The notes under the pieces: generated by a model
What the model was told of the DNA's origin: nothing
The model's database searches: none
Seen by the model: the letters and a program-made list of their open reading frames with translations, nothing else
Source of the DNA: an uncultured Bacilli bacterium
Lineage (GTDB): Bacteria > Bacillota_I > Bacilli_A > RF39 > UBA660
NCBI GenBank assembly: GCA_947629255.1
Contig: CANRDF010000001.1
Location: 758-64,757 of the forward strand
Length of the DNA: 64,000 nt
Direction: 5' to 3'
Shown: in pieces, positions 4,785 to 36,367 of the stretch
Layout: every line of letters begins with the position of its first letter
Numbering within the stretch: the stretch's first letter is position 1
Translations under genes and position numbers: made by a program

Positions 4785-5999
4785 TTATTTACTTTCAATC
4801 ACATAAGGATTATCCATCGTTCCAAGTCCTGTAACCTTTACTTTCTTGGCTAATGTAATGACAGGTCTTACAAACAAACCACTTGATTCTGAAATGTCTC
4901 TTGTTAAAGATCCATCAGGTGAAACCGCAATATAAGAGATGTTATTGTTTTCTTTTTTATTTGGAGTCATGGTCCACCAAGATGCCTGAAGGGAATCTTT
5001 ATACAAATAGTAATCTTTGTTTTCTATTGTATCTCCTCCAGCAAACATCACTTCATCGGCAGTAAGTAAGGCCACTTTTTCGGATAACGTTGTTCCTCCA
5101 CAAGCATTTGTTGGCATTTTCTCATCAAAGATTCGGATATTTGATAAATATTCAATACGATTATTTTCATCTGTTAACATACTATCATCATAACAATACA
5201 AAGTACTTACAATTTGCGAGTCCACACTTCCTAAGTAATTTTCATACCAAGTATTTAAATACTCTTTCACAAGGGAGTCATTAAAAGCATAAGGAGTTTC
5301 ATTGTTTTCTTCTTTCATCTTCACTAATTCTTCCGAAGTATTATTTAACACTAATTTGACAGTTTTATCTTCATTAATTTTAACAATTCGCCATAGAAGC
5401 CCTGCGAATGATACATAGTTATTTTCTACATTTCCATGAAAGTAATACATCGTTCCATATTGTTCTAATTTTTCAATTAAACCTATGGCACTAGCATCTT
5501 CGGTCGTTTCTTGACTAGCCAAAATCGTACTTGCAAATGTCTCATCCATTTCATCAATATCTGTTTCAATCTCAAATTTTAAATCAGAATTAAGAGGATT
5601 ATTCACACTTAGATAATAACGATGTGTTTCCATTGGTTTTAACTCATAACGACTCACAATCACAGTTCGTGATAAATTACTTTCAATTGTTTCAAAATCT
5701 TCATTTGTTGAGGTTACTTTGTAAGTCACTCCATCGGTACTTCCAGAAATATTTGTTAAATGAACATAATAAAACATGGGATCACTAGACTGATTGGTAA
5801 TTGAAAACTCTAATATATTTTTACCTAACTGATAACTTTTCCCAGATAGATAATTCACTGATAAATCATCATTGACATAGGTATAGCCTAAAGAATCTTC
5901 TTGTCTTCCTAAATATGCTTGATATTGTAACAAGATAAAGACACATAAAACCATTCCACAAATAATAAACATTAATGATACTCGATATTTTTTACGCAT
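4785..5999 (-). CDS. secreted/membrane-anchored protein, paralog of the SipW-type signal peptide family (C-terminal NPY motif)
   Basis: N-terminal KK + TM. WRI(V/I) core motif and C-terminal MDNPYVIESK shared with the 860- and 461-aa paralogs. Own TTGACA-17-TATACT promoter at 6023-6051 (minus strand). Confidence 0.55.
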   Translation of the reverse strand: MRKKYRVSLMFIICGMVLCVFILLQYQAYLGRQEDSLGYTYVNDDLSVNYLSGKSYQLGKNILEFSITNQSSDPMFYYVHLTNISGSTDGVTYKVTSTNEDFETIESNLSRTVIVSRYELKPMETHRYYLSVNNPLNSDLKFEIETDIDEMDETFASTILASQETTEDASAIGLIEKLEQYGTMYYFHGNVENNYVSFAGLLWRIVKINEDKTVKLVLNNTSEELVKMKEENNETPYAFNDSLVKEYLNTWYENYLGSVDSQIVSTLYCYDDSMLTDENNRIEYLSNIRIFDEKMPTNACGGTTLSEKVALLTADEVMFAGGDTIENKDYYLYKDSLQASWWTMTPNKKENNNISYIAVSPDGSLTRDISESSGLFVRPVITLAKKVKVTGLGTMDNPYVIESK

Positions 6000-6098: not shown

Positions 6099-7310
6099 TT
6101 ATTTTGTTTTGACAACTAAATAATACTTCTTTTTTCCACGGCGAATGATATTATATTTTTTGCTCTTTAAAACCATATTTTCATCTTGGACAATTTCTCC
6201 ATTCACACTGATGGCACGACCACCAAGGAACTCTCTTGCTTCTCGTTTGGAAGAGGCAATGTTATGATTGACTAAAAAATCAATTAACGGAGCACTTTCA
6301 TATTCTACCTGAGGAACTCCTTTAAAAACAGTCTCAATTTCTTCTTCGGTTAAATTTTTCACATTCCCTGTAAACAAACTATTTGATACTTCTTCAGCAT
6401 GAAGGTATTCTTGCTCTCCATGTAAATCGGTAATGATTTCTTTTGCAAGTGTTTTTTGAGCAAGTCTTTGTTCAGGTGATTCTTTTTGAATTTTTTCAAT
6501 ATCTTCGATTTCTTCTTTCGATAAGAAAGTTAATTTCTTTAAATAATCAATCACAAGTTCATCATCGGTATTAATTAAATATTGATATAATTCATAAGAA
6601 GATGTTTTATTTTTATCAAGCCATAAAGCATTTCCTTCGCTTTTCCCAAATTTATTTCCATCTTTATCTAAGACAAGAGGCATGACAAGTCCGTAGACTT
6701 CTTCCCCAGTTTTCTTTTTGACTAAGTCAACACCTGCTGTAATATTTCCCCATTGGTCACTTCCCGCAACTTGTAAAGTACAACCTTCCGTTTCATATAA
6801 ATGAAGAAAATCTAGGGCTTGCATAATCATATAAGAAAATTCGGTATAAGTAATTCCTGTTTCTAATCTTCTTCTTATAATATCTTTATCTAACATATAA
6901 TTCACATTAAAGTATTTTCCATAATCTCTTAAAAAATCAATAAAATTAATTTCTTTACTCCAATCCCAGTTATTCACAATTTCAAATCCAAAAATATCTT
7001 TTGCTTGACGAGATAATCCTTCCACATTTTTTTCAATTTCTTCAACAGATTTCATTTCTCTTTCGGCACTTGGTTTAGGATCCCCAATTCTTCCTGTCGC
7101 ACCACCAATCAAAAGTAATGGACGATGCCCAGCTTTGGCTAATCTCTTACAAATCAAAAATGAAGAATAATGCCCAATATGCATAGAATCTGCCGTGGGG
7201 TCTGTTCCAATATAAAAAGTAAGTCCTCCTTTATTTAACTTCTCAATAAGTTCTGGAGAAGTAATGTCTTTCACAAGTCCTCTCCACTGTAAATCTTCAT
7301 ATACTGTCAT
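6099..7310 (-). CDS. tyrS: tyrosine--tRNA ligase
   Basis: HIGH motif (MHIGHYSSF) and KMSKS-like KFGKS. C-terminal S4 domain. Start set at MTVYEDLQWRGL (ATG 7310). Confidence 0.92.
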   Translation of the reverse strand: MTVYEDLQWRGLVKDITSPELIEKLNKGGLTFYIGTDPTADSMHIGHYSSFLICKRLAKAGHRPLLLIGGATGRIGDPKPSAEREMKSVEEIEKNVEGLSRQAKDIFGFEIVNNWDWSKEINFIDFLRDYGKYFNVNYMLDKDIIRRRLETGITYTEFSYMIMQALDFLHLYETEGCTLQVAGSDQWGNITAGVDLVKKKTGEEVYGLVMPLVLDKDGNKFGKSEGNALWLDKNKTSSYELYQYLINTDDELVIDYLKKLTFLSKEEIEDIEKIQKESPEQRLAQKTLAKEIITDLHGEQEYLHAEEVSNSLFTGNVKNLTEEEIETVFKGVPQVEYESAPLIDFLVNHNIASSKREAREFLGGRAISVNGEIVQDENMVLKSKKYNIIRRGKKKYYLVVKTK

Positions 7311-7335
7311 ATGTAATTTTCCTCCCATAATAAAT

Positions 7336-7393
7336 AAAAAAATTCTATGTCTAGGGACGAATCAAATCCGTGGTACCACCCTAATTCATAGAA
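7336..7393 (-). terminator. T-box terminator/antiterminator helix of the tyrS leader
   Basis: Stem TTCTATG...CATAGAA flanks the T-box sequence and is followed by a U-run on the minus strand. Confidence 0.75.
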
Positions 7394-7470
7394 CGCATTC
7401 TATCTTTATTTTGCTTAACGCGCATAAACGATTTGATTTCCGTTGGTTGTAAGGCAACATCATCAATCAA
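7336..7470 (-). promoter_or_regulatory. T-box riboswitch leader for tyrS (Tyr specifier UAC)
   Basis: Conserved T-box AATTAGGGTGGTACCACGG lies on the minus strand at 7368-7386. Candidate specifier loop ccUUACAacc is at 7449-7452. Sits upstream of tyrS, the canonical arrangement in Firmicutes. Confidence 0.8.
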
Positions 7471-7477
7471 CAAATTC

Positions 7478-7506
7478 ATTTTAACAAAAGTTCTTACCCA
7501 TGTCAA
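7478..7506 (-). promoter_or_regulatory. sigmaA-type promoter of the tyrS leader
   Basis: Minus strand reads TTGACA (7501-7506), a 17-nt spacer, then TAAAAT (7478-7483). Confidence 0.5.
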
Positions 7507-7569
7507 ACTCTTTCTATTAAAACAGCAAAAAAGAGTAAATTTGAAAAAAATTTCTTCGCAAAGCAAATT

Positions 7570-9110
7570 TGATATAATACTACCATAAGAAGGTAGGTTT
7601 TCTAAGAGTATGTGTGAAGAGTTAAAAAAAGAAATAGAAGAAAGTCAAAATTTAGGAAGAAGAGAAAGAAAAATAAAAGAAAGACAATTGCAAAAGAAAT
7701 ATAAGGATAAAACAATAAGAATCAAGTTTGGAAAAAAATTTACTAAATCTCCTGGCTTAAGTAGAGAACAACAAAGAGAATTATTAAAAGATAAAAACTT
7801 ATTAAATGAATTAAGAAAAATTATCAAAAAATATTTTCCTGATTTAATGTCTTTATTTTCTAAACTTACGGATAAAAGACACAAAAGTTATGTTACTTAT
7901 AAAATGAGAACAATTATTATGACTAAATTGTTTGCTTTACTATGTGGTATTACAACTATGACAGGCATTAATGATGAATTTCATACAGAAGAAGCAATTG
8001 AAAATTTATCTAAAATTTGTAATCAAGAATTAAAAGAAATACCTGATTGGCAAACAATACAGGATGTGATAGAACAATTAGATTATAATGAGATTGATGA
8101 TATTAGAAAATATATGTTTAAAGCTTTACTTAGAAGTAAAATGTTTGATCGATTTCGTTATAATGGTTGTATTCAATTAATTGTAGATGCTACAGGTCTT
8201 ACTGCTTTAGACTATAACTTAAATGGCAATTGTTTAACGAGAACAAGAGATGGGAAAACAAAATATTATAAATATGTTTTAGAAGCCAAAGTAGTATTCG
8301 GCAACATGCTTATTAGTATTGATTCGGAATGGATTGAAAATAACAATTTCAATAATGAAAAAGATAAACAAGATTGTGAAACAAAGGCTTTTAAAAGAAT
8401 GGCACCTAGAATCAAAAAGAATTATCCTAAATTAAAGTTTATTATTACAGGAGATGCCTTATATGCAACTACTCCTATGATTAATCTTTGCCAAGATAAT
8501 AACTGGCATTATATTTTTAATCTTAAGAAAGATCGATTAAAAAATATTTATGAAGAATTTGAAGATAACATCAATTATGAAAATGAAGTTTCTAAAGAAA
8601 ATTATTTTTTATCTTCTAATATTTTATTTAAAGATAATAAGATTAATGCTCTTCGATACATAGAAGTAAAAGAAGATAAAACAACCGTTTTCAATTATAT
8701 TACTGATTTATCCGTAGATACTTATAACATTGAAGAGATTGTTAAGATGGGTAGACGTCGTTGGAAAATTGAAAACGAAGGTTTTAATGAGCAAAAGAAT
8801 GGAACTTATAAAATAAGTCATTTATGTAGCAGATTTGAAAATGCATTAAAGATTCATTATCTATTTATACAAATTGCTCATACCATTAGACAATTACTAG
8901 AATTGGGTTCTTTGGTTGTTAAATCCATAAAAAGATATGTGAAGAAAAAAGAAATAAGCAAAGATATCACCCACACGCTTATTTCTTCCAAAATCACAAA
9001 TCTAGAAAGTTTAGATTTAAACTTTCAATTAAGATTTGATGATTAGATTATACTACTAAATTTGACCTTTGAAAACTAGTGTGGGTGATATTTTTATAAT
9101 TTTGATTTTT
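7570..9110 (+). mobile_element. IS element carrying an IS4-superfamily DDE transposase (boundaries approximate)
   Basis: Single transposase ORF with an extended -10 (TGaTATAAT, 7570-7578). Terminal repeats not confidently identified. atactac occurs at 7577 and 9055. Confidence 0.45.
7610..9046 (+). CDS. DDE transposase (IS4/IS1634-like)
   Basis: 478 aa. C-terminal RRRWKIENEGFNEQK resembles the IS4-family R-x3-E-x6-K signature. Lys/Glu-rich N-terminus. Confidence 0.7.
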   Translation: MCEELKKEIEESQNLGRRERKIKERQLQKKYKDKTIRIKFGKKFTKSPGLSREQQRELLKDKNLLNELRKIIKKYFPDLMSLFSKLTDKRHKSYVTYKMRTIIMTKLFALLCGITTMTGINDEFHTEEAIENLSKICNQELKEIPDWQTIQDVIEQLDYNEIDDIRKYMFKALLRSKMFDRFRYNGCIQLIVDATGLTALDYNLNGNCLTRTRDGKTKYYKYVLEAKVVFGNMLISIDSEWIENNNFNNEKDKQDCETKAFKRMAPRIKKNYPKLKFIITGDALYATTPMINLCQDNNWHYIFNLKKDRLKNIYEEFEDNINYENEVSKENYFLSSNILFKDNKINALRYIEVKEDKTTVFNYITDLSVDTYNIEEIVKMGRRRWKIENEGFNEQKNGTYKISHLCSRFENALKIHYLFIQIAHTIRQLLELGSLVVKSIKRYVKKKEISKDITHTLISSKITNLESLDLNFQLRFDD

Positions 9111-9118
9111 TGCATGCC

Positions 9119-9208
9119 TTAATTTATGCGAAAAAAAACTTTATGATCTTTTTTATCTTTAATTTTCATAAAGTTTTCTTTTTTAAACTAATTTACTCTT
9201 TTTTTCTG
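9119..9208. repeat. ~90-bp direct repeat copy 1 (contains a bidirectional terminator hairpin)
   Basis: About 95% identical to 14756-14843. Contains the inverted repeat AAAACTTTATGA-N18-TCATAAAGTTTT flanked by A8/T-runs. Confidence 0.8.
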
Positions 9209-9221
9209 TATTAAAAAATGA

Positions 9222-9246
9222 GATAGTTGATAAACGTCAACTATCT
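9222..9246 (-). terminator. rho-independent terminator of the 9308-9769 gene
   Basis: GATAGTTGA-taaacg-TCAACTATC, followed by a T-run on the minus strand. Confidence 0.55.
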
Positions 9247-9307
9247 ATGTGATCGACATGAATCTAGACTATTTTTTCATGTATAGGTTATAAAGTGAAC
9301 AAAGATA

Positions 9308-9769
9308 TTAATTCATTTTCTTAGATAAAATTAAATTTTCTTGAGATAAATCTTGATATTCTTGAAGCGTTTCTTCCCAAGACTTTCCAAAGTGTTGATC
9401 TTTATATTCCGTAATTGTTCTTTCAGTCACTTCTTCTCTAGAAAAAATACTATTTTCAGAAATATTTAATTTATTTTGACAAATATAGAAGAGAAATAAT
9501 GAAGCATCTTGCATTCCTTCTAAAGTATAAGAATATTTACGATCCATCAAAAGAACATTCATTCGAAGTAATGGAAGTTTCATACCAGTAACAATTTCAG
9601 TTACATATTTTTTATGAAAAAATTTTTCATTCACAATAAGATTGTCGACAACTTCTATCGCATCTTGTTGAAAAATTCCATGACAGCAATGATAATAATT
9701 ATCGTTTTCCCGTGCTTCTTCCAAATTTTTGGGTCTACACAATTTCATTTTATATAACATCTTTTTCAC
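9308..9769 (-). CDS. hypothetical protein (bacteriocin-cassette associated)
   Basis: 153-aa ORF inside the repeat-bounded cassette. Confidence 0.4.
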   Translation of the reverse strand: MKKMLYKMKLCRPKNLEEARENDNYYHCCHGIFQQDAIEVVDNLIVNEKFFHKKYVTEIVTGMKLPLLRMNVLLMDRKYSYTLEGMQDASLFLFYICQNKLNISENSIFSREEVTERTITEYKDQHFGKSWEETLQEYQDLSQENLILSKKMN

Positions 9770-9822
9770 CCGAGAATTACAGTATCACAAAAAAAATAAA
9801 AAATCAATCAAATTTAAATGCA

Positions 9823-10758
9823 TTATGATCTATTATTGTTTTTTTGCTCCACTTTCTGAATTACTGTTAGTATAATTAAAAAGATTGTCGCGAGAATAAG
9901 TAAAAACCATATATTTTTGCTTAACGCATTCATGAAATAATTAATAAATGTATTAGCGCTCTCCCATTGATTCATTAAAAAGTCTTTTCCAATAGTTCCA
10001 ATCATAATTTCAACAAAAACAAAAAGGAAAATATAAACTAAAATAGTATTTTTTAAATAAAGAATATATTTTTTAGAATGAAAATGAAGACATACCAAAC
10101 AAAACGCACTTATAAGGAGAACGCTTAAAGCAACACAAATATAAGTTGTACTCATAAACATTTTTAACAAACCTGTCACATCTTTTAAAGTAATATTTTG
10201 ATATACAATAATATTTCCTTCTTCCATCTTTTTTAAGAATACATTCGCAGTCGGGAAAAAATTCATGACTTCTCCTGCATACTCATGAATAAAATTCACA
10301 ATCTTTTGTTTATCTTTCTCTGAAAAAGATTTATGATTCTCTTGTAATTTGGCATCAATCACATAAAAATTATCAGTGGCCAATTGAATCAAATCATCTT
10401 TTGTAATACTTGCTTTATCTTCTTGATAAATGATATAGTTTAAAACATCATAAGTATATTTACCAATAAAGTTCTTGGTCGCTTTACTGTTTAACACAGA
10501 ATCAATTGTATCAGAAGGAATAGATAAAAATTCTAAGAATTCTCGCATTTCCTCAATAAAAACAGGTTCTTTCCCGTAACGATCCTGTAGCAAAAAAGAT
10601 AAATCATTATTTTCAATATTAGATACAATTTCGCTTTCTCGTAAATTCCACTTTAAAAGAAAAGAAATAGTTAAAAAAATACTAGCACTTAATATGATAA
10701 TAGATAAAAAAACAGATACGATTTTCTTTCCCATTTCCATCACCTTCTTGTTCTTCAT
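9823..10758 (-). CDS. polytopic membrane protein (candidate immunity/accessory protein)
   Basis: 311 aa with an N-terminal TM and a C-terminal TM cluster. Sits in the bacteriocin cassette. Confidence 0.45.
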   Translation of the reverse strand: MKNKKVMEMGKKIVSVFLSIIILSASIFLTISFLLKWNLRESEIVSNIENNDLSFLLQDRYGKEPVFIEEMREFLEFLSIPSDTIDSVLNSKATKNFIGKYTYDVLNYIIYQEDKASITKDDLIQLATDNFYVIDAKLQENHKSFSEKDKQKIVNFIHEYAGEVMNFFPTANVFLKKMEEGNIIVYQNITLKDVTGLLKMFMSTTYICVALSVLLISAFCLVCLHFHSKKYILYLKNTILVYIFLFVFVEIMIGTIGKDFLMNQWESANTFINYFMNALSKNIWFLLILATIFLIILTVIQKVEQKNNNRS

Positions 10759-10861
10759 TCATTTTATCACAAGTTTTTTTGTTTGTCATTCTATATCGTA
10801 TTTATGGGACGAAAGCCGAATAAAATACATCAAAATGAGAAAATTACTACTAGGTGATAGT

Positions 10862-11299
10862 ATGAATTTTGAAAGGATTCGTTTTGTAAGAGAAATGCTA
10901 GATCTTTCTGGGAGACAACTTGCTAAAAAGCTAAACTTAACAAAATCAACTGTCTCAAGATGGGAAACTGGAGAAAAAGTAATTCCTTTAAAACATCTCA
11001 TTACTTTATGTAATGAAACGATGATCAGCCTCGATTTTGCTTTAGGATTATCTAATGATCGATCCAAAATCACAGAAAAAAGAGAATTAGATCCAATATG
11101 GATTGGGAAACATTTAAAAATTCTAAGAGAACAGAAGAAAATTACTCAATCAGAATTAGCCAAACTTTTAAACACATCTCAATCAACAATATCATCTTAT
11201 GAAAGTGGGAAAACGACAATACTGACTGCATTTCTTTATTCCATTTGCAAGCGTTATAAAGTATCTGCAGATTGGATTTGTGATAATAATGAATCTTGA
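10862..11299 (+). CDS. tandem-HTH XRE-family transcriptional regulator
   Basis: Two Cro/C1-type HTH units (LAKKLNLTKSTVSRWE and LAKLLNTSQSTISSYE). Start at MNFERIRF with RBS AGGTGA. Paralog of 46515-46952. Confidence 0.75.
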   Translation: MNFERIRFVREMLDLSGRQLAKKLNLTKSTVSRWETGEKVIPLKHLITLCNETMISLDFALGLSNDRSKITEKRELDPIWIGKHLKILREQKKITQSELAKLLNTSQSTISSYESGKTTILTAFLYSICKRYKVSADWICDNNES

Positions 11300-11349
11300 A
11301 ACTGCCGTTCTCCTGGTATCATTGTAACACACATCACAATAATATACAA

Positions 11350-11378
11350 GAAAAAACTAGAAAAATTCTAGTTTTTTT
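11350..11378. terminator. bidirectional terminator between the convergent regulator and bacteriocin operon
   Basis: CTAGAA-aaa-TTCTAG flanked by A6 and T7. Confidence 0.5.
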
Positions 11379-11535
11379 AGCAAAAATTTTTTTTCACAAA
11401 GCGACTTATGGCAGACCCAAAAGCACGACCAAGTTCAAAAATTTTTTGAAATCCATCAACAATTGCATTTACCATACTTGCTGTGATGGATGCGCCTCCC
11501 TCAATTTGAAGAAGTTCCTGAGAGTTTAATTTCAT
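11377..11535 (-). CDS. double-glycine-leader bacteriocin precursor peptide 2
   Basis: Manual translation gives (MEN)MKLNSQELLQIEGG|ASITASMVNAIVDGFQKIFELGRAFGSAISRFVKKNFC. The leader fits the LSxxELxxIxGG consensus. RBS AAAGGA. Alternative start ATG at 11544. Confidence 0.75.
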   Translation of the reverse strand: MKLNSQELLQIEGGASITASMVNAIVDGFQKIFELGRAFGSAISRFVKKNFC

Positions 11536-11550
11536 ATTTTCCATTCCTTT

Positions 11551-11691
11551 CTATTTGTTGCATTTGAGTGGTCTTGTGATTCCATCTAAGAAACCACCAA
11601 GAAATGAAATGACGCCTGCGATCACTCCACCAATTACGAGCCAGCTTACTCCACCACCATAAGTGGCTAAGAGTTCCTCTTTTTCCATCAT
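11551..11691 (-). CDS. double-glycine-leader bacteriocin precursor peptide 1 (GxxxG-rich)
   Basis: Manual translation gives MMEKEELLATYGG|GVSWLVIGGVIAGVISFLGGFLDGITRPLKCNK. Strong RBS AAAGGAGGTGA. ATGA overlap with the upstream ORF. Confidence 0.75.
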   Translation of the reverse strand: MMEKEELLATYGGGVSWLVIGGVIAGVISFLGGFLDGITRPLKCNK

Positions 11692-12158
11692 GGGTCTTCA
11701 CCTCCTTTCAAGGTTTTGATAAGAATTTCCATAAGGCTTTTCTTATCTTCAATTAAAGTAACATCAATCGTTTCTTTATCGTAAAACTCAAGTTTAGGAA
11801 TTTCTAAAGAAACGGTTTCATAAGCGACATTTTGGATCACTTCTATACTTCCAAATTCTTTGACTTTCAAAGAATATTTTTTTGATTTGATCCATAATTC
11901 ATTACTTTCTTTTAAATTTTTTGCATGAGAATATGGCATCAAAACTTTTAAAGTACAATCATTCTTCTTACATTCATATAAACCTTGCAAAGGAATTGTT
12001 TCTTCAATTTTGTAGAAGAACAAAAGACTAATACAAAAAAGAAATAAAAGTAAGAAAAAAATTAAAAATTTTAACTTTGTTTTTTGATGTAACAAGGCAT
12101 ATATGTTATACTGTGGATTTTTTGTTTGCAAATGTAATCTTCCTTTCAAATAAATCAC
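11688..12158 (-). CDS. membrane-anchored small protein of the bacteriocin operon (possible accessory/immunity)
   Basis: 156 aa with one N-terminal TM. Overlaps the transporter 3-prime end and peptide 1 start (translational coupling). Confidence 0.45.
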   Translation of the reverse strand: MIYLKGRLHLQTKNPQYNIYALLHQKTKLKFLIFFLLLFLFCISLLFFYKIEETIPLQGLYECKKNDCTLKVLMPYSHAKNLKESNELWIKSKKYSLKVKEFGSIEVIQNVAYETVSLEIPKLEFYDKETIDVTLIEDKKSLMEILIKTLKGGEDP

Positions 12159-14145
12159 TATGATCTTTATGACTAATATAAATAACGGTTTTCCCCTTTA
12201 ACAATTTTCGAATTCCCCCAATAATCTTCACTTCCATCGAATCTTCCACTTCACTTAAAACTTCATCGAGTAAATAAACACTTCCCTCTTTCATTAGAGC
12301 CCGAGCAAGTAATATTCTTTGTCTTTCTCCACCAGACAAGGAAGAATCATTAATGAATGATGCATAACGAAGAGGCTTTTTACTTACAATCGATTCAATC
12401 TCACAAGCCCGACAAACCTCATCAAAATGTTTACCTTTTTCACTACCCATTAAAATATTATCTTCAATAGTTCCCGCGACAAAAGACTCGTTTTGACTTA
12501 AGTAAATGACGGAAGAACGAATCTCAGACAAAGTATAATCTTCTAAATCTTTTTCTAAAAAAGTAATTTTTCCCATATAATCCGTAAGTTCTCGATGCAA
12601 AATTTTACACAAAGTACTTTTTCCACATCCACTCGGTCCATCTAAGAAGACATGTTCTTTCGCTTTCACTTTAAAACTAAAATCAACAATACTTTCTTTG
12701 ACATCATTATAAGAATAACTAATATGTTTTCCTTCAATACTTGGAACAGGAATCACTGATGTAGTCTTCACTTCTTCTTCCTTAAGTTCCATCGTTTCAC
12801 TTAATTTTGAAAGAATCCCTTTCATATAGTAAAATCTTGGCAATAAATCTGTAAGTTCTTTTAAAGGATTTATAAAATACAAATATAAACTTTGAAATAA
12901 AAGAAAATCATAAATAGTTAAAATGTTATCTTTCACTAAAATCATTCCATATGTCATTAAAAGAAAGAACAAGATTTCTAAAAAGTTTTCCCTGATAAAA
13001 TCAATCACAAAAGCATGACTTTTTTCTTTCGTATTTAAAATCACGGTTTCACAAAGACGTTCTTCCATGGTTTGAATCGAGTATTCTGTTAAATTTAAGT
13101 TTTTCATACTCGGATAAAGTTTGATTTTTTCCATAATAAATTCATTCCATTTAGTATTATTTTCCATTAAATGTTTTATAATTTTATAGTAATACCTTGA
13201 AGTAAGAGAACTAATGACACAGTAAAGAAACATACCAAGAACGACAACCAGAGTGAGATGATAATCTAAGAAAAACAAAAGAACTAACGAAGAAATACCA
13301 AGAATTCCTTCAAGAAAAAATGTTATACAAATCTGAATAAATAAGTCTTTTACATTTTTTGCTTCTTCAATTCTTGTAATGATATCTCCTTCATGAAAGC
13401 TTTGAAATTTTGGCATGGGAAGTTTTAATAAATGAGAAACAAATGAATAAAGATAAGTTACTTCTACATTTCGATTTAGTTTCAATTCCATTTTTCCTTT
13501 TCCATAAGTAAAAATACATTTGAGAATTGTAAATCCTAAAAAGATTCCAACAAAAAGCCAAAACTGTTGATTCGAAAACAAAGGAGTATATTCCATTCCA
13601 ATTTTTAAATAAAAACTCGAAAGAATCGAAAGAACAGAAATCATAAGACTTAAGAAAACAATGACAAAAATATTTTTCTTTTCTCTTTTAACAATCTCCA
13701 TCACATGTTTTAAAACACTTTTCTCTTTTGGAATTCTAGGAATATAAGTTCTTGGAATGGCCACTAAAACTATGCCATCCCATATGGTTTGTAATTCTTT
13801 CTTTAAAACTTCTCTTTTTCCAGAAGACGGATCCATAATCGTTACACTTTTTTCACTAATTTTAGTTAAAACAACAAAGTGCTGCATTCCATTTGGTAAT
13901 ACAAAATGAAGAATGGCTGGAAGCGGAATTTCTTTTAAATGATTCATATCACTTTTTTCGCCAAAAGAATCAAATTGATATTTCTTTAACGTTTCCACTA
14001 AATGATAAGCAGTCGTTCCATTCTGATCAGTATAAGTATCTTCTTTTAATTTTTCAATAGGCACATATCCATGATAAAACTCTATAATATAGAGAAGACA
14101 TGTTACTCCACAATCTCTAAAATCTCGTTGTACAATCGACTTCAT
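12106..14145 (-). CDS. bacteriocin ABC exporter with N-terminal C39 peptidase domain
   Basis: C39 catalytic Cys (RDCGVTC) and His (HFVVL). Six-TM region, Walker A GPSGCGKST, LSGGERQR signature, LLDE Walker B. Confidence 0.88.
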   Translation of the reverse strand: MKSIVQRDFRDCGVTCLLYIIEFYHGYVPIEKLKEDTYTDQNGTTAYHLVETLKKYQFDSFGEKSDMNHLKEIPLPAILHFVLPNGMQHFVVLTKISEKSVTIMDPSSGKREVLKKELQTIWDGIVLVAIPRTYIPRIPKEKSVLKHVMEIVKREKKNIFVIVFLSLMISVLSILSSFYLKIGMEYTPLFSNQQFWLFVGIFLGFTILKCIFTYGKGKMELKLNRNVEVTYLYSFVSHLLKLPMPKFQSFHEGDIITRIEEAKNVKDLFIQICITFFLEGILGISSLVLLFFLDYHLTLVVVLGMFLYCVISSLTSRYYYKIIKHLMENNTKWNEFIMEKIKLYPSMKNLNLTEYSIQTMEERLCETVILNTKEKSHAFVIDFIRENFLEILFFLLMTYGMILVKDNILTIYDFLLFQSLYLYFINPLKELTDLLPRFYYMKGILSKLSETMELKEEEVKTTSVIPVPSIEGKHISYSYNDVKESIVDFSFKVKAKEHVFLDGPSGCGKSTLCKILHRELTDYMGKITFLEKDLEDYTLSEIRSSVIYLSQNESFVAGTIEDNILMGSEKGKHFDEVCRACEIESIVSKKPLRYASFINDSSLSGGERQRILLARALMKEGSVYLLDEVLSEVEDSMEVKIIGGIRKLLKGKTVIYISHKDHSDLFERKITFANKKSTV

Positions 14146-14264
14146 AAAAATATCCTCCTATATATATATTCAAGAAAAAGTGCCAATTTCCTTTTTTTTT
14201 ATGCAAATTTCTTCAAAAAAGTTAAAAATTTTACATTCTGTTTACGTTTTTGATTATTTTTATC

Positions 14265-14340
14265 ATTCTTCTTTACATTTTGCATACGCTACATAAAAGT
14301 GTAAAGAAAAAGTAAAGAAATTGTTCTTTACTCATCTATA
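14265..14340. promoter_or_regulatory. repeat-rich putative operator/promoter region upstream of the bacteriocin operon
   Basis: Four copies of TTCTTTAC/GTAAAGAA in alternating orientation, including the palindrome CTTTACATTTTG..CAAAAGTGTAAAG. A T9 tract sits at 14195-14203. Confidence 0.4.
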
Positions 14341-14348
14341 TTTTTTTA

Positions 14349-14657
14349 CTATTTTTCTTTTAACTCTTCAATTGTCTCTACGGATAAACCTGTAATTCTA
14401 GAAATTTTTTCTATTCCTAGCTCATGAATTTCTTCTAACATATTCTTAGCTATCTCCCTACGTCCAGCGTCAAGTCCTTCTCCATAAAAAACATTTTTAA
14501 GATTCTCTTCCCAATTGTAGATTTTACGTAACTCTTTGTCTTGTCTTAAATCAATTGGACTTGTTGCTATCGTCATTAAGTCATCATCTCCTCTTGCAAT
14601 TTGCTTTCTTTTCTTCTCTGATGTTTCTTGCATTAACCATAAGTGTCTTAGTAGCAA
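14349..14657 (-). pseudogene. remnant of an Rpn-family (PD-(D/E)XK) putative transposase, C-terminal fragment only
   Basis: C-terminus EGLDAGRREIAKNMLEE..ISRITGLSVETIEELK matches the conserved Rpn/YhgA tail. The ~220-aa N-terminal nuclease domain is absent. Confidence 0.45.
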
Positions 14658-14755
14658 ATCGTAATTTATAACATTATAATAATATACTTTAGTAACTTGT
14701 CAAGTCTTAGAATAAAGATTTCTATATCTTTAGAAAAAATTCTTTTTTGTTTTTT

Positions 14756-14843
14756 TAATTTATGCGAAAAAAAACTTTATGATCTTTTTATCTCTAATTT
14801 TCATAAAGTTTTCTTTTTTAAACTAATTTACTCTTTTTTTCTG
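14756..14843. repeat. ~90-bp direct repeat copy 2 (bidirectional terminator hairpin)
   Basis: About 95% identical to 9119-9208. Lies immediately downstream of the 860-aa gene. Confidence 0.8.
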
Positions 14844-14890
14844 GATTTATGGCTGAGTAGTAACGGGCTTTTTCGCATCATATTCATCTT

Positions 14891-17473
14891 TCATTCCACT
14901 AATTCTAACTCATATGGGTTTTCATAACTTCCATCTTTACCATTATCTTTTATTTGAACATTTTGTTTCAAATATAAGGTAGGTCGAATCGCATTGGAAT
15001 GATTTGGGCCATATCCTTTATAACTGGGGTAGGAACAATGAACAAATCCAGTATTGGTCATTTGAAAAACATATGCATTCCCCGAGAAGAAATATGAAAC
15101 CGACAACATCCACACATTATCAGAGATATCAGTCGAATATAGCCAATCATGTTCCTCACAACTCGTATTATAATCACTTAAATCAGTTTCTAAGCAAGAA
15201 TCTCTAACTGCTCCCCCTGCCGCATAACCATAGTCACTTGGATACATGACGGCAATGCTATGGAATAAATTTTGGTCTAATTCACCATTCGCATCCTTGG
15301 TATTTTCTCTAGTCCAATAAGAAGTCGAAGCTTTGTTGGGTATAATGTTGCTTCTCTCCCATTTATAAAAGGTAGGAGTATTATCATATCCATAACCCAT
15401 GATAGCACCTGTGTCCCAAATAATTTCTTCGTCTATCATGTTTGTATCACTTAAAGTTGAATAATACGTTTCATTTAAATACCGCATCAAATCTGAATCA
15501 GTCCAGTCAGTGTGAGAGGAATCAGAATCCCATTGCCGATTTCCTATACTATCATTGCTAATTATTTTGAACCTTTTTTCAGTGGTTCCAGTTGATGTTT
15601 GGACATTCACAAGTCCTATAATTCTCCATAATTCATTGTTAAATGTTAAATAATTATGAACATAATCTGTACTACTGTCTGTGTAGTTATCTCCTGCATA
15701 ACGGCATTCATTCTTTTTCCAAAATTCTATGCTAATATCTGAATGTTCTACCATATATAAGCCATTTCCTTCTGTTACAATAGGAACATTTTTAATTGGA
15801 GATACCAAGATTGTTTTGGATGTTTCATTTGCATTTCCAGATTCATCTGTTACTTTTACAGTGATGGTGTAATTCTCACATGGTATAACTGAAAATTTAT
15901 GACTATTTTCTCCATTTTCCCAGTTTCCTTCATCTATTTTATATTCATATGATTGAATTCTTGTCTCTTGATCTGCACTTTTACTTGCATCTGCTAGGAT
16001 TGTGTTTCCATTGGAACTTAATTGTAAATCGACTGTTGGTGGAGTTACATCTATATAAGATATTTGAATAGAACTGTGAGTTACATTGTTATATGCATCT
16101 TTGGCATAAACATAATAAGTTCCATTTTCTGTTACTGGGTAATCTGCATTATAACTTTTTGGATTGCCGTCTATTGTTATCCATGTTTCTGGGTCTTTTG
16201 CTTCTGTCATCACTTGATATCCAAATAATCCTGCTTTTTCATCACTTAAATTGATATGGATTTTATCACTTTCTCCCCAAGCAGTTAAATCATTTGTAAG
16301 AGTAATTGTTGGTGGTTTTTTATCAATAATATCTGTACTATATTTCATTGAACTTGTGTGTCCCAAAGCATCTTGAGCAAATATATAATATATTCCATTA
16401 TCTTCTATTGTTTGATTTACTATATAATCATTTTGAGTTTTCTCTACACTTTCCCATTCACTTGGTGGAGCTGGGGTACTTTCTGATAACAACATAATTG
16501 GTGTTAAATCTTCTTTGGTGATTTGATATTTTACTAAGCCACTTTGAGAATCTTTTAGGGTTATTGTTAATTCTACTGATGTATGATTGTCTTTTTGTTC
16601 ATATTTAATATCTGGTCCTACTGTATCAATCTTTGTCACTTCAAATTCTTTTTCTTTTATATTTCCCATTTCATCTTTTACCGAAAAATAATATTTTCCT
16701 AATTTTGTAAAATCTTCTGTAATTTCAAATGTTGTATTTTTATCACTAATTGGTTTCCAATTTTGAGTTTCTTGCATTTGACTTATTTTATATTCTATTA
16801 ATTTATACTTTTCACTAACTGCTTTTAAAGTGATACTCTCACTTTTTTCATTATATTCTGCTGTATTTGAGTTAGCACTTAATATAATATTATTTTCTAA
16901 TTGCTCTGTTGTTTTATATGTTGCTACGACTGTAATCTTACTTTTAAAGTAAGCATTCATAACTTCTTCGATGGGTGGTGTTTCCTCATCTAACCATAAT
17001 CTTAAATGGTAAGTTACACTTTGATTTTGCCCATCTAATATTCCTGTTGTTAATCTATGAGACTTAGTTGCATTTTCTAATGTTTCTTTGACGCTTTCAT
17101 AATCACTTAACACTAATGGCGTTCTATCGTCAAGTTGAACTTTTAGATATTTTTCTGGTAAAAGTTTTTGTTCTTCTTCTAATTGTAATGTTTCCAGATT
17201 TACTTGATAGGTTAAAGAAGTAGGACATATATTGGTAATGGTAAATTCGTATGGAGTTAATTCTTCTCCTTCTTCATCTGAAATCGGAAATGCTTTTTGT
17301 AATGAAATAGGATTTTTCTCATCTGTTAAAGTGACTTTAAAACAACTAGATGCAAGCGTATCATTATCCATTTGAGAAAGTCTAAGTTCCCAGAACGCAT
17401 AAGTCACTCCTACTACACTTAATAATAATATACTTAATCCTAAAATAAATAAACTTGTTTTCTTTCTTTCCAT
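14891..17473 (-). CDS. large secreted surface protein with SipW-cognate-type signal peptide and Ig-like repeats
   Basis: N-terminus KKTSLFILGLSILLLSVVGVTYAFWE resembles the TasA/camelysin signal. Repeated TVGPD/PPTITL/TPPTVDL modules. C-terminal WRIIGLVNV...NPYELELVE homology with the 461-aa paralog. Confidence 0.6.
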   Translation of the reverse strand: MERKKTSLFILGLSILLLSVVGVTYAFWELRLSQMDNDTLASSCFKVTLTDEKNPISLQKAFPISDEEGEELTPYEFTITNICPTSLTYQVNLETLQLEEEQKLLPEKYLKVQLDDRTPLVLSDYESVKETLENATKSHRLTTGILDGQNQSVTYHLRLWLDEETPPIEEVMNAYFKSKITVVATYKTTEQLENNIILSANSNTAEYNEKSESITLKAVSEKYKLIEYKISQMQETQNWKPISDKNTTFEITEDFTKLGKYYFSVKDEMGNIKEKEFEVTKIDTVGPDIKYEQKDNHTSVELTITLKDSQSGLVKYQITKEDLTPIMLLSESTPAPPSEWESVEKTQNDYIVNQTIEDNGIYYIFAQDALGHTSSMKYSTDIIDKKPPTITLTNDLTAWGESDKIHINLSDEKAGLFGYQVMTEAKDPETWITIDGNPKSYNADYPVTENGTYYVYAKDAYNNVTHSSIQISYIDVTPPTVDLQLSSNGNTILADASKSADQETRIQSYEYKIDEGNWENGENSHKFSVIPCENYTITVKVTDESGNANETSKTILVSPIKNVPIVTEGNGLYMVEHSDISIEFWKKNECRYAGDNYTDSSTDYVHNYLTFNNELWRIIGLVNVQTSTGTTEKRFKIISNDSIGNRQWDSDSSHTDWTDSDLMRYLNETYYSTLSDTNMIDEEIIWDTGAIMGYGYDNTPTFYKWERSNIIPNKASTSYWTRENTKDANGELDQNLFHSIAVMYPSDYGYAAGGAVRDSCLETDLSDYNTSCEEHDWLYSTDISDNVWMLSVSYFFSGNAYVFQMTNTGFVHCSYPSYKGYGPNHSNAIRPTLYLKQNVQIKDNGKDGSYENPYELELVE

Positions 17474-29851: not shown

Positions 29852-31174
29852 TTACAAAGATAATGTATATGGTTTTTCTTGACTACCATCCTGTCCATTA
29901 TCTACAATTTTAATACTTTGTTTTAAATACAAAGAAGGATATGTTTGTAAAGCATGATATGTACCATTACTTGTATAAATAGATAAATTAGGATCTATTC
30001 CATAAGCGTATATATTCCCATCATTTCTAGATGTAATCGTCCATATGTATTTAGAATTTGGCTTTATCCAACTGCTATTATAGCATTCTAAACTATACGT
30101 ATCATTCGATTGTATATTAAACAATATTTTGGATAAGCATGCATCTCGTCCTTCCTCTCCTCCATCTGTTGTATATCCATAATCACTAGGGTAAATAAGC
30201 CCTACCCCATGAAAAATTGCAAAATTACTATTTTCTTTATTCCAAACAATTGCTTGACCATTATAACTATTACTGCCACGTTCTTTTTCATATAAATCAT
30301 TTACATAACTATTTACTCGCATTCCATATCCTGTATTCCAAGAAATATCTTCATCAATCATATCATGTGATAAAGAATTTAACCCTTTTATTTTTTCACT
30401 ACCATCAAAATTACATACACTTTCAGTCTTATCACTAGTATTCCAACATTCTCCACTTTCACTATTATAATAAATTCCATTTAACATTTCCATAAGACTC
30501 GATTTTGTCCAATCATTATTGTCATCTTTATCCCAAGCAAAAGATCCAATACTTTCATTTCTAACAATTTTTACTCTTTGTTCTATTGTATTATCTTCAT
30601 CTATCATGACATTCACAAGTCCTATGATGCGCCAATCTTCATCATTAAATTTAATATAATTATTTGGATTTGTCCCCGCATAACGCCATTCGGTTTGCTT
30701 AAATCCCTCATCTAATGAACTATCTTCATGTTTGACTTCATAAAGTCCATCTCCACTGGTCACGGCTTTCACTGGTTTTCCTAAAATAAAAGCACCTTTC
30801 ACAAAATATAAATTACATTTCGTTCTTGACGTAGTCATTCCACTTACATGTACTGTATAATCTTCGGTTAAAGATACATGAATCTTTTCATCATCCTGTC
30901 CATTTATTCCACAGTAACTTGCATCTTCATCTAATATATATCCGCTATGAATTTGAGGCATTTCTTTTTGAATATTGTTATCCACATAAAAAGCAAAGTA
31001 AATGTTTCCTGGATCTTCCAATGTTCCATTAATCACATTTTGATTTGTTTTCACTTCAAAAATAGCAAATGTTCGATATAAAACAACTCCACTTACTAGC
31101 AAAATACAGATAATCGTAAATACTATAATTCCAAATTGTTTATGATTTCTTTCTTTAAATTTTTCTAGCCTCAT
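29852..31174 (-). CDS. secreted protein with SipW/TasA-like signal peptide (paralog family; C-terminal EKPYTLSL)
   Basis: Start at MRLEKFKERNHKQFGIIVFTI...LYRTFAIFEV...NGTLED. WRIIGLVNV block shared with the 860-aa protein. Own promoter TTGACA-17-TATACT. Confidence 0.6.
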   Translation of the reverse strand: MRLEKFKERNHKQFGIIVFTIICILLVSGVVLYRTFAIFEVKTNQNVINGTLEDPGNIYFAFYVDNNIQKEMPQIHSGYILDEDASYCGINGQDDEKIHVSLTEDYTVHVSGMTTSRTKCNLYFVKGAFILGKPVKAVTSGDGLYEVKHEDSSLDEGFKQTEWRYAGTNPNNYIKFNDEDWRIIGLVNVMIDEDNTIEQRVKIVRNESIGSFAWDKDDNNDWTKSSLMEMLNGIYYNSESGECWNTSDKTESVCNFDGSEKIKGLNSLSHDMIDEDISWNTGYGMRVNSYVNDLYEKERGSNSYNGQAIVWNKENSNFAIFHGVGLIYPSDYGYTTDGGEEGRDACLSKILFNIQSNDTYSLECYNSSWIKPNSKYIWTITSRNDGNIYAYGIDPNLSIYTSNGTYHALQTYPSLYLKQSIKIVDNGQDGSQEKPYTLSL

Positions 31175-31280
31175 ATCCTCACCTACTATTTCAAGTATAT
31201 TATTTTTAAAGGTATCTGTCAAGTACCATATTATCATTTTAAAGGTATTTTCGTAGTACCCTTATGTTAGGTGAAAGAAA

Positions 31281-34471: not shown

Positions 34472-36271
34472 TTATGGAGTAAGGATAAGTCGAAAAGTAT
34501 TTCCTATACCTGCTATACCACGAGCACCCATAAATGTGCTAATTCCCGATTCACTTCCATGACTCATACTTCCATTTCGAAGAAACCACGGAAAATCTGA
34601 ATAAATAAAGTATGCCATATCAGCAAAATAACTACTTATGGATTGTGTAAGATTTTGACCATAACTATACTGAATGGTATAAAAAGGACCAGTCTCTTTT
34701 GTAGCATCCCCTAAATGTCCTAAGAAATAATTTTTCTCAGTGGTACCAAATTCGTATAAATCATAATATTTACTTTGAGGCATAAGTAATCCATCTTCTT
34801 TTTCTCCATCCATTTTAGAATAGGGACCATTAAATCCAGAATTTGTAGTAGAATTAATTCCCGTAGTAGGTGTTCTATTAGTAAGAGAAGATTGCATAAC
34901 CCCCATAACAAATTCTCCTGCTCCTCCAGACATATCATAAATTCCTGAATAATTTCCTGTTGTGCTTGATTCCATGCTTAACGGATTATAATAATTATAA
35001 CTATAGTTCCCATCCTGATTGATTTTCACATTTTCGTATTTATTACATTCTTCATTTGATGCTGTATATCCACAAGTTGCATCTTTACTTGCAGAATATC
35101 CTGTTATATAATTACCATTATTATTTAATCTTACTTCTTTACATTCTGTTTCACTGCATCTACCATATTTGGAATAAGTCAAATAGAAAACTGCACCCCA
35201 TTCTGTGTTTTTCATCATATGACTATCTAAATCCCGTAAATAATTATAAGAATTATAAAATGCATGAGAAATATCGATAGATCTCCAACTATAAGTATTA
35301 GGTTTTATTTGAATAGCGGAACTATTTAACACATTATAATTTTCAATGAGTGTTGTTCCAGTTTCAAATTTGCCGACCCACATTCCATTTGCATGAAAAG
35401 AGACAAAAGCAGGATGAGTCAGCCAATCATTTTGTTGAGTACCAGTCGATAAACCAGAATCTACAGTTTCATAGACTATTTTATATGGATTTTTTAAGCC
35501 TAAATTTGGAACACTATCGTTGTTTGAATGTACGCCTAAAGAAGTTCTGTCAGAATAATTATTATATGTACTTTCACTTTCTTTTAATTGATATCTATAC
35601 CTTGGAATCCACACAAAATAACTTTCAATATCACTTTCGGGTATTTCTTGTCCAGATGCATAATTATCTGACACACCATCTTTAAGTATCACGGCATTTG
35701 CCCATTGTTTATTGGCATAATTATACCATTCATCCGTAATATCTGCTTTTATGACTTTTCCACCATAATTTTGCAAAGCATTTATGTATTCTACATCACT
35801 TGGCTTAGCATTATTCATAATTTGAACTGGGACAAGTCGTCCATTTCCAAGATCTGGTATAGCACCGTTTAATTCTGAATCCTTATAAATTTGTTTGAAA
35901 TAAAGATAGCATTTTGTTTTCGTAGTAGAAACATTTTTAATTTCTATACTCCAATTTTCATAATCCCAATTAACATTACTTACCTGTTTGTCATTTAATA
36001 AATCTACACAATAACTAGAACTTGTATCTAATGAATAACCTTCTCCTTTTTTAGGAGCTTCTTTTACTATGCCATCATCTTTATAAAAAACAAACTCTAA
36101 ATCTCCCATGTCCCCTACTTTTCCTTTAATCACATTTTGATTTGTTCTTACTTCAAATATCGCAAATGTTCTATAAAGTATTACTCCACTAACTAGTAAA
36201 ATACATGTTATTGTAAACACTATGATCCCTATTCTTTTGTTATCTCTTTCTTTAAATTTTTTTAATTTCAT
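34472..36271 (-). CDS. secreted protein with SipW/TasA-like signal peptide (paralog family, divergent C-terminus)
   Basis: N-terminal 100 aa nearly identical to the 461-aa paralog (MKLKKFKERDNKRIGIIVFTI...LYRTFAIFEV). Promoter TTGACA-17-TATAAT. Confidence 0.6.
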   Translation of the reverse strand: MKLKKFKERDNKRIGIIVFTITCILLVSGVILYRTFAIFEVRTNQNVIKGKVGDMGDLEFVFYKDDGIVKEAPKKGEGYSLDTSSSYCVDLLNDKQVSNVNWDYENWSIEIKNVSTTKTKCYLYFKQIYKDSELNGAIPDLGNGRLVPVQIMNNAKPSDVEYINALQNYGGKVIKADITDEWYNYANKQWANAVILKDGVSDNYASGQEIPESDIESYFVWIPRYRYQLKESESTYNNYSDRTSLGVHSNNDSVPNLGLKNPYKIVYETVDSGLSTGTQQNDWLTHPAFVSFHANGMWVGKFETGTTLIENYNVLNSSAIQIKPNTYSWRSIDISHAFYNSYNYLRDLDSHMMKNTEWGAVFYLTYSKYGRCSETECKEVRLNNNGNYITGYSASKDATCGYTASNEECNKYENVKINQDGNYSYNYYNPLSMESSTTGNYSGIYDMSGGAGEFVMGVMQSSLTNRTPTTGINSTTNSGFNGPYSKMDGEKEDGLLMPQSKYYDLYEFGTTEKNYFLGHLGDATKETGPFYTIQYSYGQNLTQSISSYFADMAYFIYSDFPWFLRNGSMSHGSESGISTFMGARGIAGIGNTFRLILTP

Positions 36272-36367
36272 GTGAATCACCTATATATTCCCATTCGTTC
36301 TGTATGGATTATAATCAAATTATACATTCATATTGTATGCTTGTCAAGAAAGGATGAAAGTATAAAT

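Follow-up and report, generated by a model that had tools for sequence, protein, structure and literature searches.

We analysed a 64,000-nucleotide stretch of DNA (hereafter referred to as the window; positions 758 to 64,757 of contig CANRDF010000001.1, assembly GCA_947629255.1) from an uncultured Bacilli bacterium, in which a cassette of bacteriocin-type genes is flanked by two near-identical direct repeats of about 90 bp. According to the original prediction, these repeats delimit a 5.7-kb module that was acquired or reshuffled by recombination between them. Our results lead to a different explanation: both repeats are very probably the right ends of one family of insertion sequence (IS) and stem from two separate IS events. 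What appears to bracket the cassette is one intact IS on one side and one decayed copy on the other. The organism belongs to an IS-rich lineage of uncultured, Mollicutes-like Bacilli of the rabbit gut, and its tyrosyl-tRNA synthetase (TyrRS) shares 78% identity with that of Candidatus Ventrenecus.

The first repeat is the right end of an intact insertion sequence

Alignment of the segments 9119-9208 and 14755-14843 confirmed that they are direct repeats, identical at 88 of 90 positions (98%); the second begins one nucleotide before position 14756, where it had been placed initially. The two differences, a 1-nt change in a T-run and a T>C substitution, both fall within the loop of a hairpin present in each copy. 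Two probes of 30-38 nt taken from the element each matched just the two repeat sites in the window, whereas shuffled sequences lead to an expectation of 0. The previously noted 12-bp stem (AAAACTTTATGA/TCATAAAGTTTT) is A/T-rich and perfect in both copies and encloses a loop of 18-19 nt; on the minus strand it lengthens to 16 bp. The folding energy is -11 to -12.7 kcal/mol (z about -3.7), and 0 of 200 shuffled sequences were equally stable. The hairpin is symmetric, with an A-run before it, a T-run after it and U-tracts on both strands.

The first repeat constitutes the final 90 bp of an intact IS of 1,686 bp, and is not a boundary of the cassette (the coordinates of all features are given in Table 1). 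The terminal inverted repeats of this IS (CAGCAAAAAAGAGTAAATT on the left and CAGAAAAAAAGAGTAAATT on the right) match at 18 of 19 positions, and the same 8-mer (TATTAAAA) is found directly outside both ends as a perfect target-site duplication (TSD). The tail of the repeat (9181-9214) is an inverted match to 7517-7550, across the transposase gene, and the terminal 19-mer CAGNAAAAAAGAGTAAATT occurs at three sites in the window, namely 7523 (+), 9208 (-) and 14843 (-), with 0.02 expected. The 478-residue protein encoded between the ends matches the Pfam families PF13808 (DDE_Tnp_1_assoc; 45.4 bits, cut-off 32.3), PF13701 (DDE_Tnp_1_4; 40.6 bits, cut-off 34.7) and PF01609 (DDE_Tnp_1; 34.3 bits, cut-off 23). 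The earlier identification of an IS transposase at this repeat was thus correct as to the DDE transposase, but not as to its position just outside the repeat, since the repeat lies inside the IS.

Sister strains provide the empty site. When 7523-9208 and one copy of TATTAAAA are removed, the window becomes collinear with the sister-strain contigs L016/L017 (alignment A1), in which the promoter and T-box of tyrS come directly after a 150-residue gene; the TyrRS of this strain is 97% identical to that of the window. The contigs with the empty site include those of the metagenome-assembled genome (MAG) GCA_947586205.1 ('uncultured Bacilli bacterium', rabbit gut). The orthologue of the 153-residue gene at the edge of the cassette (80% identical) adjoins tyrS in the sister strains without a repeat. 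As these strains keep the unoccupied site, the insertion must be recent, and the perfect TSD around the IS shows that it came by itself, when the cassette was already there. Ordinary DDE transposition, with an 8-bp duplication, placed it between the terminator of the 153-residue gene and the tyrS promoter; it now lies 9 bp upstream of the tyrS -35 box. Just 5' of the transposase start, the left end of the IS (7568-7596, + strand) contains an extended -10-like sequence (TTTGATATAAT) and a hairpin (CTACCATAAGAAGGTAG), which are kept in copies with 99% identical transposases, are variable in the 78-85% copies, and may control translation of the transposase.

The second repeat is an orphan IS end fused to an Rpn pseudogene

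The second repeat is an ordinary IS remnant, in the same orientation as the intact IS. The segment 14739-14843 matches nucleotides 1573-1686 of L024, another copy of the IS, with 92% identity over 114 aligned positions, and matches the resident IS with 98% identity over 90 nt. The match to L024 is 16 nt longer, so that the orphan end is closer to L024 and therefore comes from another IS variant rather than being a duplicate of the neighbouring IS. Neither a left-end-like sequence, nor a remnant of transposase-coding sequence, nor a flanking TSD was detected when we looked for them in 14340-14860.

The truncated Rpn-family remnant that had been placed just inside this repeat was confirmed and extended. 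The 102-residue open reading frame (ORF; 14349-14657) is part of a larger pseudogene, to which the 284-residue protein P0279 aligns in two frames (residues 159-174 and 171-284), with homology beginning at 14734. Full-length relatives have 274-285 residues, and one of them (P0285) passes the model TIGR01784 (56.8 bits, cut-off 52.1). The remnant alone scores 15.2 bits with the same model, the nuclease part (codons 1-158) being gone. By itself, the 102-residue remnant gave no Pfam, PDB or plasmid match, and its Rpn identity came through the all-protein search. The inner edge of the orphan end is 4 nt (AAAA) from rpn codon 159. The best promoter-like site of the region (TTGACA at 14703 and TATTAT at 14676; 11 of 12 positions) lies within rpn-derived sequence.

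From this junction, the simplest history that may be proposed is as follows. A second IS, in the same orientation, would once have been located between an intact rpn gene and the gene for an 860-residue surface-type protein. A single deletion, at least about 2 kb long and with breaks in the IS (at about nucleotide 1572) and in rpn (codon 158/159), would then have removed the left end, the transposase gene and the first 158 rpn codons, fusing the orphan end to the rpn stump. The inner break is inside the IS, so this was not an adjacent deletion made by the transposase. It is conceivable, if unlikely, that the orphan end persists because its hairpin now terminates the 860-residue gene and insulates the cassette. 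Contigs L001 and L003 of the same strain break 48 nt upstream of the 860-residue gene. Genes of its PKD/DUF6273 family are also present elsewhere in the window (4785-5999, 29852-31237 and 34472-36280, in addition to 14891-17473) and in L008, L010 and L034, and all share conserved 5' regions.

The IS is abundant in related Bacilli

Searches with the transposase returned 2,347 homologues, most of them on contigs of 1.6-2.0 kb; such IS-sized contigs are typical of a multi-copy IS assembled from short reads. The copies that we fetched encode transposases 99% (L024, L025), 85% (L028-30) or 77-78% (L031, L036-44, L045) identical to that of the window. Independent copies are 1,659-1,694 bp long and have the same ends as the window IS: all fetched copies begin with CAG(C/A)AAAAAGAG... 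and close with ...TTTACTCTTTTT..(C/T)TG, after which unrelated DNA follows. Perfect 8-bp TSDs flank the copies in L028 (TGTGATTT), L031 (TTAATAAA) and L045 (ATGTAAAT), and for the P0206 copy four more TSD pairs were matched across unitigs (AATTATGT, TAATAGTG, TACAAAAA and AAAAAGAA).

Across related genomes and metagenomes, about 15 different junctions were found to contain the 90-bp element itself; one scan of genome contigs located it in three contigs, which come from two rabbit-gut MAGs and differ in gene context. MAG contigs L008-L010 and L034 all end 76-78 nt inside the element, as is expected of assemblies that break at a multi-copy repeat. In the sister strain Lapin-004_bin27, contigs likewise break at the IS. 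Being an IS terminus found at so many junctions, the element is essentially the widespread repeat, unrelated to the cassette, that the original prediction had named as the finding that would speak against it.

A scan of viral contigs for the hairpin returned nothing, and three candidates from the scan of metagenome contigs (L011-L013) were rejected as chance hairpins. Two distant look-alikes of the right end, 73-81% identical and with the same stem sequence, were observed in L014 (468-529) and in the human-gut contig L015 (6969-7045). Neither has a transposase nearby; the L015 element is flanked by convergent genes, and the 9-kb locus fetched around it contains no transposase homologue. Both may be old orphan ends retained as terminators. 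Mobile-element-like genes adjoin some IS right ends: a UPF0236 gene (PF06782) in L024 (2164-3621) and, in L009 (84-1241), a 385-residue ORF whose N-terminus is HTH-like. These neighbourhoods suggest a clustering of mobile elements in the genomes concerned.

The IS end retains its hairpin in diverged copies

Two types of stem were found among the copies, CTTTATGA in the window, L024, L025, L028 and L034, and ATAGATAGAA in L031, L036 and L045. They were compared by independent folds, as the MAFFT alignment A2 sets them one column out of register. The two types differ at about 8 of 12 positions, with complementary changes on the other arm, and in both a 12-bp hairpin stands at the same distance from the terminus. 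The right end of the IS has thus conserved its hairpin through replacement of the whole stem, and such compensated replacement strongly suggests that the structure as such is important to the IS.

The hairpin lies about 90 nt after the stop codon of the transposase gene and about 30 nt inside the right end. Given this position and the U-tracts on both strands, it most likely acts as a terminator of the transposase gene and a two-way transcriptional insulator at the edge of the IS. A role in the binding of the transposase or of a host factor is conceivable as well.

The cassette predates both IS events

Within the collections searched, the cassette was located at this locus (in the same strain), in L032 and in L034. 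The sister-strain contig L032, whose exporter is 96% identical, is collinear with the window from 14703 to 9866 and then continues directly into the 153-residue gene. Its rpn junction has no orphan end: a different, G+C-richer repeat (GTGGGGTGAGTTTACTCACGAAATGTGCTTTTAGCACCT...; L032 1-87) takes its place upstream of the stump, and the truncation of rpn reaches about 10 codons further. This repeat also stands at a contig end in L008 (1-39). In the more distant MAG contig L034 (exporter 64% identical), the exporter, its partner, the two peptides, the XRE regulator and a 153-residue-like gene are present downstream of a different PKD/DUF6273 surface-protein gene, and the transporter side has neither an rpn stump nor an IS piece. 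The last gene there (a 31% identical homologue of the 153-residue protein) overlaps, at its end, with a separate IS right end. The predicted 311-residue membrane protein is 82% identical in L032 and absent from L034. The cassette thus predates both IS events and was merely caught between them.

These comparisons bear directly on the possibility that the repeats are att-like or homologous recombination sites that served to acquire, excise or reshuffle the 5.7-kb module. In its favour, the module stands between direct repeats with 98% identity, a length of 90 bp could in principle allow homologous deletion, and the region is polymorphic among strains. However, the first repeat is part of an IS with a TSD of its own and an empty site in sister strains, where the 153-residue gene adjoins tyrS with no repeat (L016/L017); the cassette is present without the orphan end in L032, and elsewhere, with no repeat on the transporter side, in L034. 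In addition, Pfam and NCBIfam searches gave no integrase or recombinase domain for the genes between the repeats, the element is found at many unrelated junctions, the differences between strains do not map to the repeats, and no contig showing an excision or deletion product between them was found. We therefore consider this explanation, on which the original prediction relied, very unlikely. Its more general point stands, in that mobile-element activity has reshaped the locus and has left an IS and an Rpn remnant at its edges.

It is slightly less probable still that the 90-bp element is an autonomous terminator repeat, similar to repetitive extragenic palindromic (REP) sequences or miniature inverted-repeat transposable elements, which was targeted or captured by the IS. 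Several IS families target REP-like palindromes, the copy at 14755-14843 stands alone, and the 73%-similar hairpin element in L015 has no transposase within its fetched locus. Against this, in at least 7 independent insertions the TSDs lie outside the element and not between it and the transposase gene, the element finishes with a 19-nt inverted repeat of the IS left end, and the type of stem follows the transposase subgroup, as expected of co-divergence. The solo copy has no second inverted repeat or TSD of its own, and extends a further 16 nt into IS-specific sequence. It is the one solo copy in 64 kb; MAG contigs breaking 77 nt into the element do not separate solo from full copies.

The left end at 7523 and the orphan right end at 14843 are correctly oriented, the orphan retains the full terminal repeat and the subterminal hairpin, and the resident transposase gene is intact, but that the two ends delivered the bacteriocin genes as a 7.3-kb compound transposon is equally hard to credit, since the flanking 8-mers differ (TATTAAAA left of 7523 and GATTTATG right of 14843), so that 7523-14843 was not moved as one unit, the IS is flanked by a perfect TSD of its own, L032 carries the cassette but no orphan end at the rpn junction, and no second locus with the unit was found in the collections searched. 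The related proposal for the future, that the two ends form a latent 7.3-kb compound element which the resident transposase could move, spreading the cassette among these uncultured gut bacteria, seems improbable too, if somewhat less so.

Several observations weigh against our preferred explanation, that both repeats are right ends of one IS family left by two events. A full IS beside a full rpn gene, the ancestral state in the single-deletion history proposed above, was not observed. The IS seems to be without a named family, as its transposase scores below all curated NCBIfam IS-family cut-offs (35 bits for IS4, cut-off 115; 34 for IS1380, cut-off 180; 22 for IS701, cut-off 250; 15 for IS1634, cut-off 100) and has no NCBIfam match for ISAs1. 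The copies in L024 and L025 have no matching TSDs; these may be chimeric metagenome contigs or IS-IS recombinants. For a terminator, the hairpin is atypical, with a single G-C pair in the stem and a loop of 14-19 nt, and a simple terminator scan gives no call. Finally, the sister strain has an IS left end upstream of the 150-residue gene (L016 1-92, and the starts of L017, L018 and L020), and the 4 nt beside the IS are TCAA in L016, GAAC in L032 and CATA in the window, several contigs ending exactly there. The difference in L016 could mean that the insertion is polymorphic or that the cassette was lost in association with an IS. For this IS upstream of the 150-residue gene in GCA_947586205.1, the expected duplication is GCATTTGA, in the IS orientation.

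With respect to plasmids, blastn with the IS gave no match, and tblastn found transposases only about 25% identical, in genes labelled 'ISNCY' or hypothetical.

Genes of the cassette and its surroundings

The gene content between the repeats is as described initially: a regulator, peptides, accessory genes and a transporter. The genes are listed in Table 1 together with the other features of the region.

Table 1. Features of the tyrS-cassette region of the window
Feature	Coordinates	Strand	Remarks
tyrS	6099-7328	-	
T-box leader of tyrS	7350-7515	-	
tyrS promoter	7506-7478	-	TTGACA/TAAAAT
TSD, left copy	7515-7522	.	
Intact IS	7523-9208	+	IS4-superfamily DDE, unclassified
Left terminal inverted repeat	7523-7541	+	
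Transposase, 478 aa	7610-9046	+	Pfam DDE domains
Repeat copy 1	9119-9208	+	
Hairpin arms, copy 1	9135-9146/9166-9177		
Right inverted repeat of the IS	9190-9208	+	
TSD, right copy	9209-9216	.	perfect 8-bp match to left copy
Intrinsic terminator of the 153-aa gene	9221-9246	-	10-bp stem, 6-nt loop, T-run; dG -11.3 kcal/mol
153-aa protein	9308-9769	-	no family match; may be an immunity or accessory protein
311-aa predicted membrane protein	9823-10758	-	no family match
XRE regulator	10862-11299	+	two HTH_3 domains (Pfam 5e-27, two stretches); ORF extendable to 10694
55-aa peptide	11377-11544	-	double-glycine leader MENMKLNSQELLQIEGG; class IIb matches E ~0.03, below cut-off
46-aa peptide	11551-11691	-	GG(G) leader, GxxxG-rich core; lactococcin G-beta/class IIb E 0.01-0.02, below cut-off
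MAG1140-family protein, 156 aa	11688-12158	-	NF045999 31.1 bits (cut-off 35), E 2e-7
Peptidase-C39 ABC exporter, 679 aa	12106-14145	-	PF03412 1e-30, PF00664, PF00005
Rpn-family pseudogene	14349-14734	-	codons 159-284 only; frameshift near 14687-14699
Orphan IS right end	14739-14843	+	same orientation as intact IS
Repeat copy 2	14755-14843	+	
Hairpin arms, copy 2	14771-14782/14801-14812		
Terminal repeat of the orphan end	14825-14843	+	
PKD/DUF6273 surface-type protein, 860 aa	14891-17473	-	stop codon 47 bp from outer tip of orphan end

The 153-residue gene has an intrinsic terminator of its own, and therefore the cassette does not need the IS hairpin for termination there. For the XRE regulator, the shorter version starting at 10862 is likelier, because the ORF from 10694 overlaps the start of the divergent 311-residue gene (10694-10758). 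The leaders of the two peptides, as read from the sequence, end in ...LLQIEGG and ...LLATYGGG. Compared with the curated bacteriocin families TIGR03949 and NF038034, the peptides score 12.6-15.7 bits, below the cut-offs of 21.5 and 37. The end of the exporter gene overlaps the MAG1140-family ORF by 53 nt (12106-12158), and the best NCBIfam match of the exporter is the Mbov_0121 family (308 bits, cut-off 500). The combination by which class II export loci are recognised, a C39 peptidase-ABC exporter with double-glycine-leader peptides, is thus present, and the cassette probably works like a class II bacteriocin export locus. Its GC content of 25-32%, compared with 29.6% for the window, gives no compositional anomaly.

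The tyrS T-box scores 58 bits (E 1.5e-11) over the full length of the model. The Rfam gathering score is 93, and the T-box was therefore missed by the default scan; T-boxes of this lineage may be under-called. At the gathering threshold, Rfam gave nothing at the repeats and only two tRNAs in the window, and a permissive scan of 7200-9300 gave the tyrS T-box only.

Discussion

The main value of these results lies in correcting the apparent cassette bracket. They also define, by its ends, its 8-bp duplication and its conserved hairpin, a very abundant IS of uncultured Mollicutes-like Bacilli of the rabbit, human and other guts. This IS fragments the metagenome assemblies of these bacteria and passes no curated IS-family model. 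The locus illustrates how accessory loci are eroded here by IS insertion and by deletion, including the loss of an Rpn gene, and it draws attention to the presence in the lineage of a cassette for peptide export (bacteriocin-type), of the Mbov_0121/MAG1140 kind. The current understanding of IS biology is unchanged by these results.

Among known systems, the cassette resembles class II two-peptide-like loci and the Mbov_0121/MAG1140 pair of Mollicutes in its C39-ABC exporter with an overlapping small partner, its two peptides with double-glycine leaders, its divergent XRE gene and its membrane or small proteins, which are candidates for immunity. It differs from both in that all family-specific models are below cut-off here. 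The Rpn pseudogene is homologous to the YhgA-like Rpn family (TIGR01784) in its C-terminal 126 codons, but its N-terminal nuclease part is absent and it is frameshifted.

As in composite transposons (Tn5/Tn10) and elements with ISEcp1-type surrogate ends, the passenger genes are enclosed by a left end and a distal, correctly oriented right end from one IS family. Here, however, there is one complete IS with its own TSD, the unit as a whole has no flanking duplication, and the passenger is found in a relative without the distal end. The 90-bp element is similar to REP/BIME, RUP, BOX and Correia repeats in its length of about 90 bp, its palindromic core, its intergenic position near gene ends and its breaking of short-read assemblies, but unlike them it is the end of a 1.7-kb IS, without inverted repeats or a duplication of its own.

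The intact element is most similar to IS4-superfamily DDE elements (IS4/ISAs1-like), with which it shares a single DDE_Tnp_1-type transposase with an N-terminal DDE_Tnp_1_assoc domain, imperfect inverted repeats of about 19 bp starting with 5'-CAG, a fixed 8-bp duplication, multiple copies and polymorphic sites. It differs from them in remaining below the curated NCBIfam cut-offs, its nearest annotated relatives (about 25% identical) being labelled ISNCY, and in having a conserved 12-bp subterminal hairpin. Lastly, the orphan end resembles the solo IS ends left by deletion, as it keeps its inverted repeat, is without a transposase gene, other end or TSD, and is fused to a truncated gene, and in this it is in no way unusual among them.

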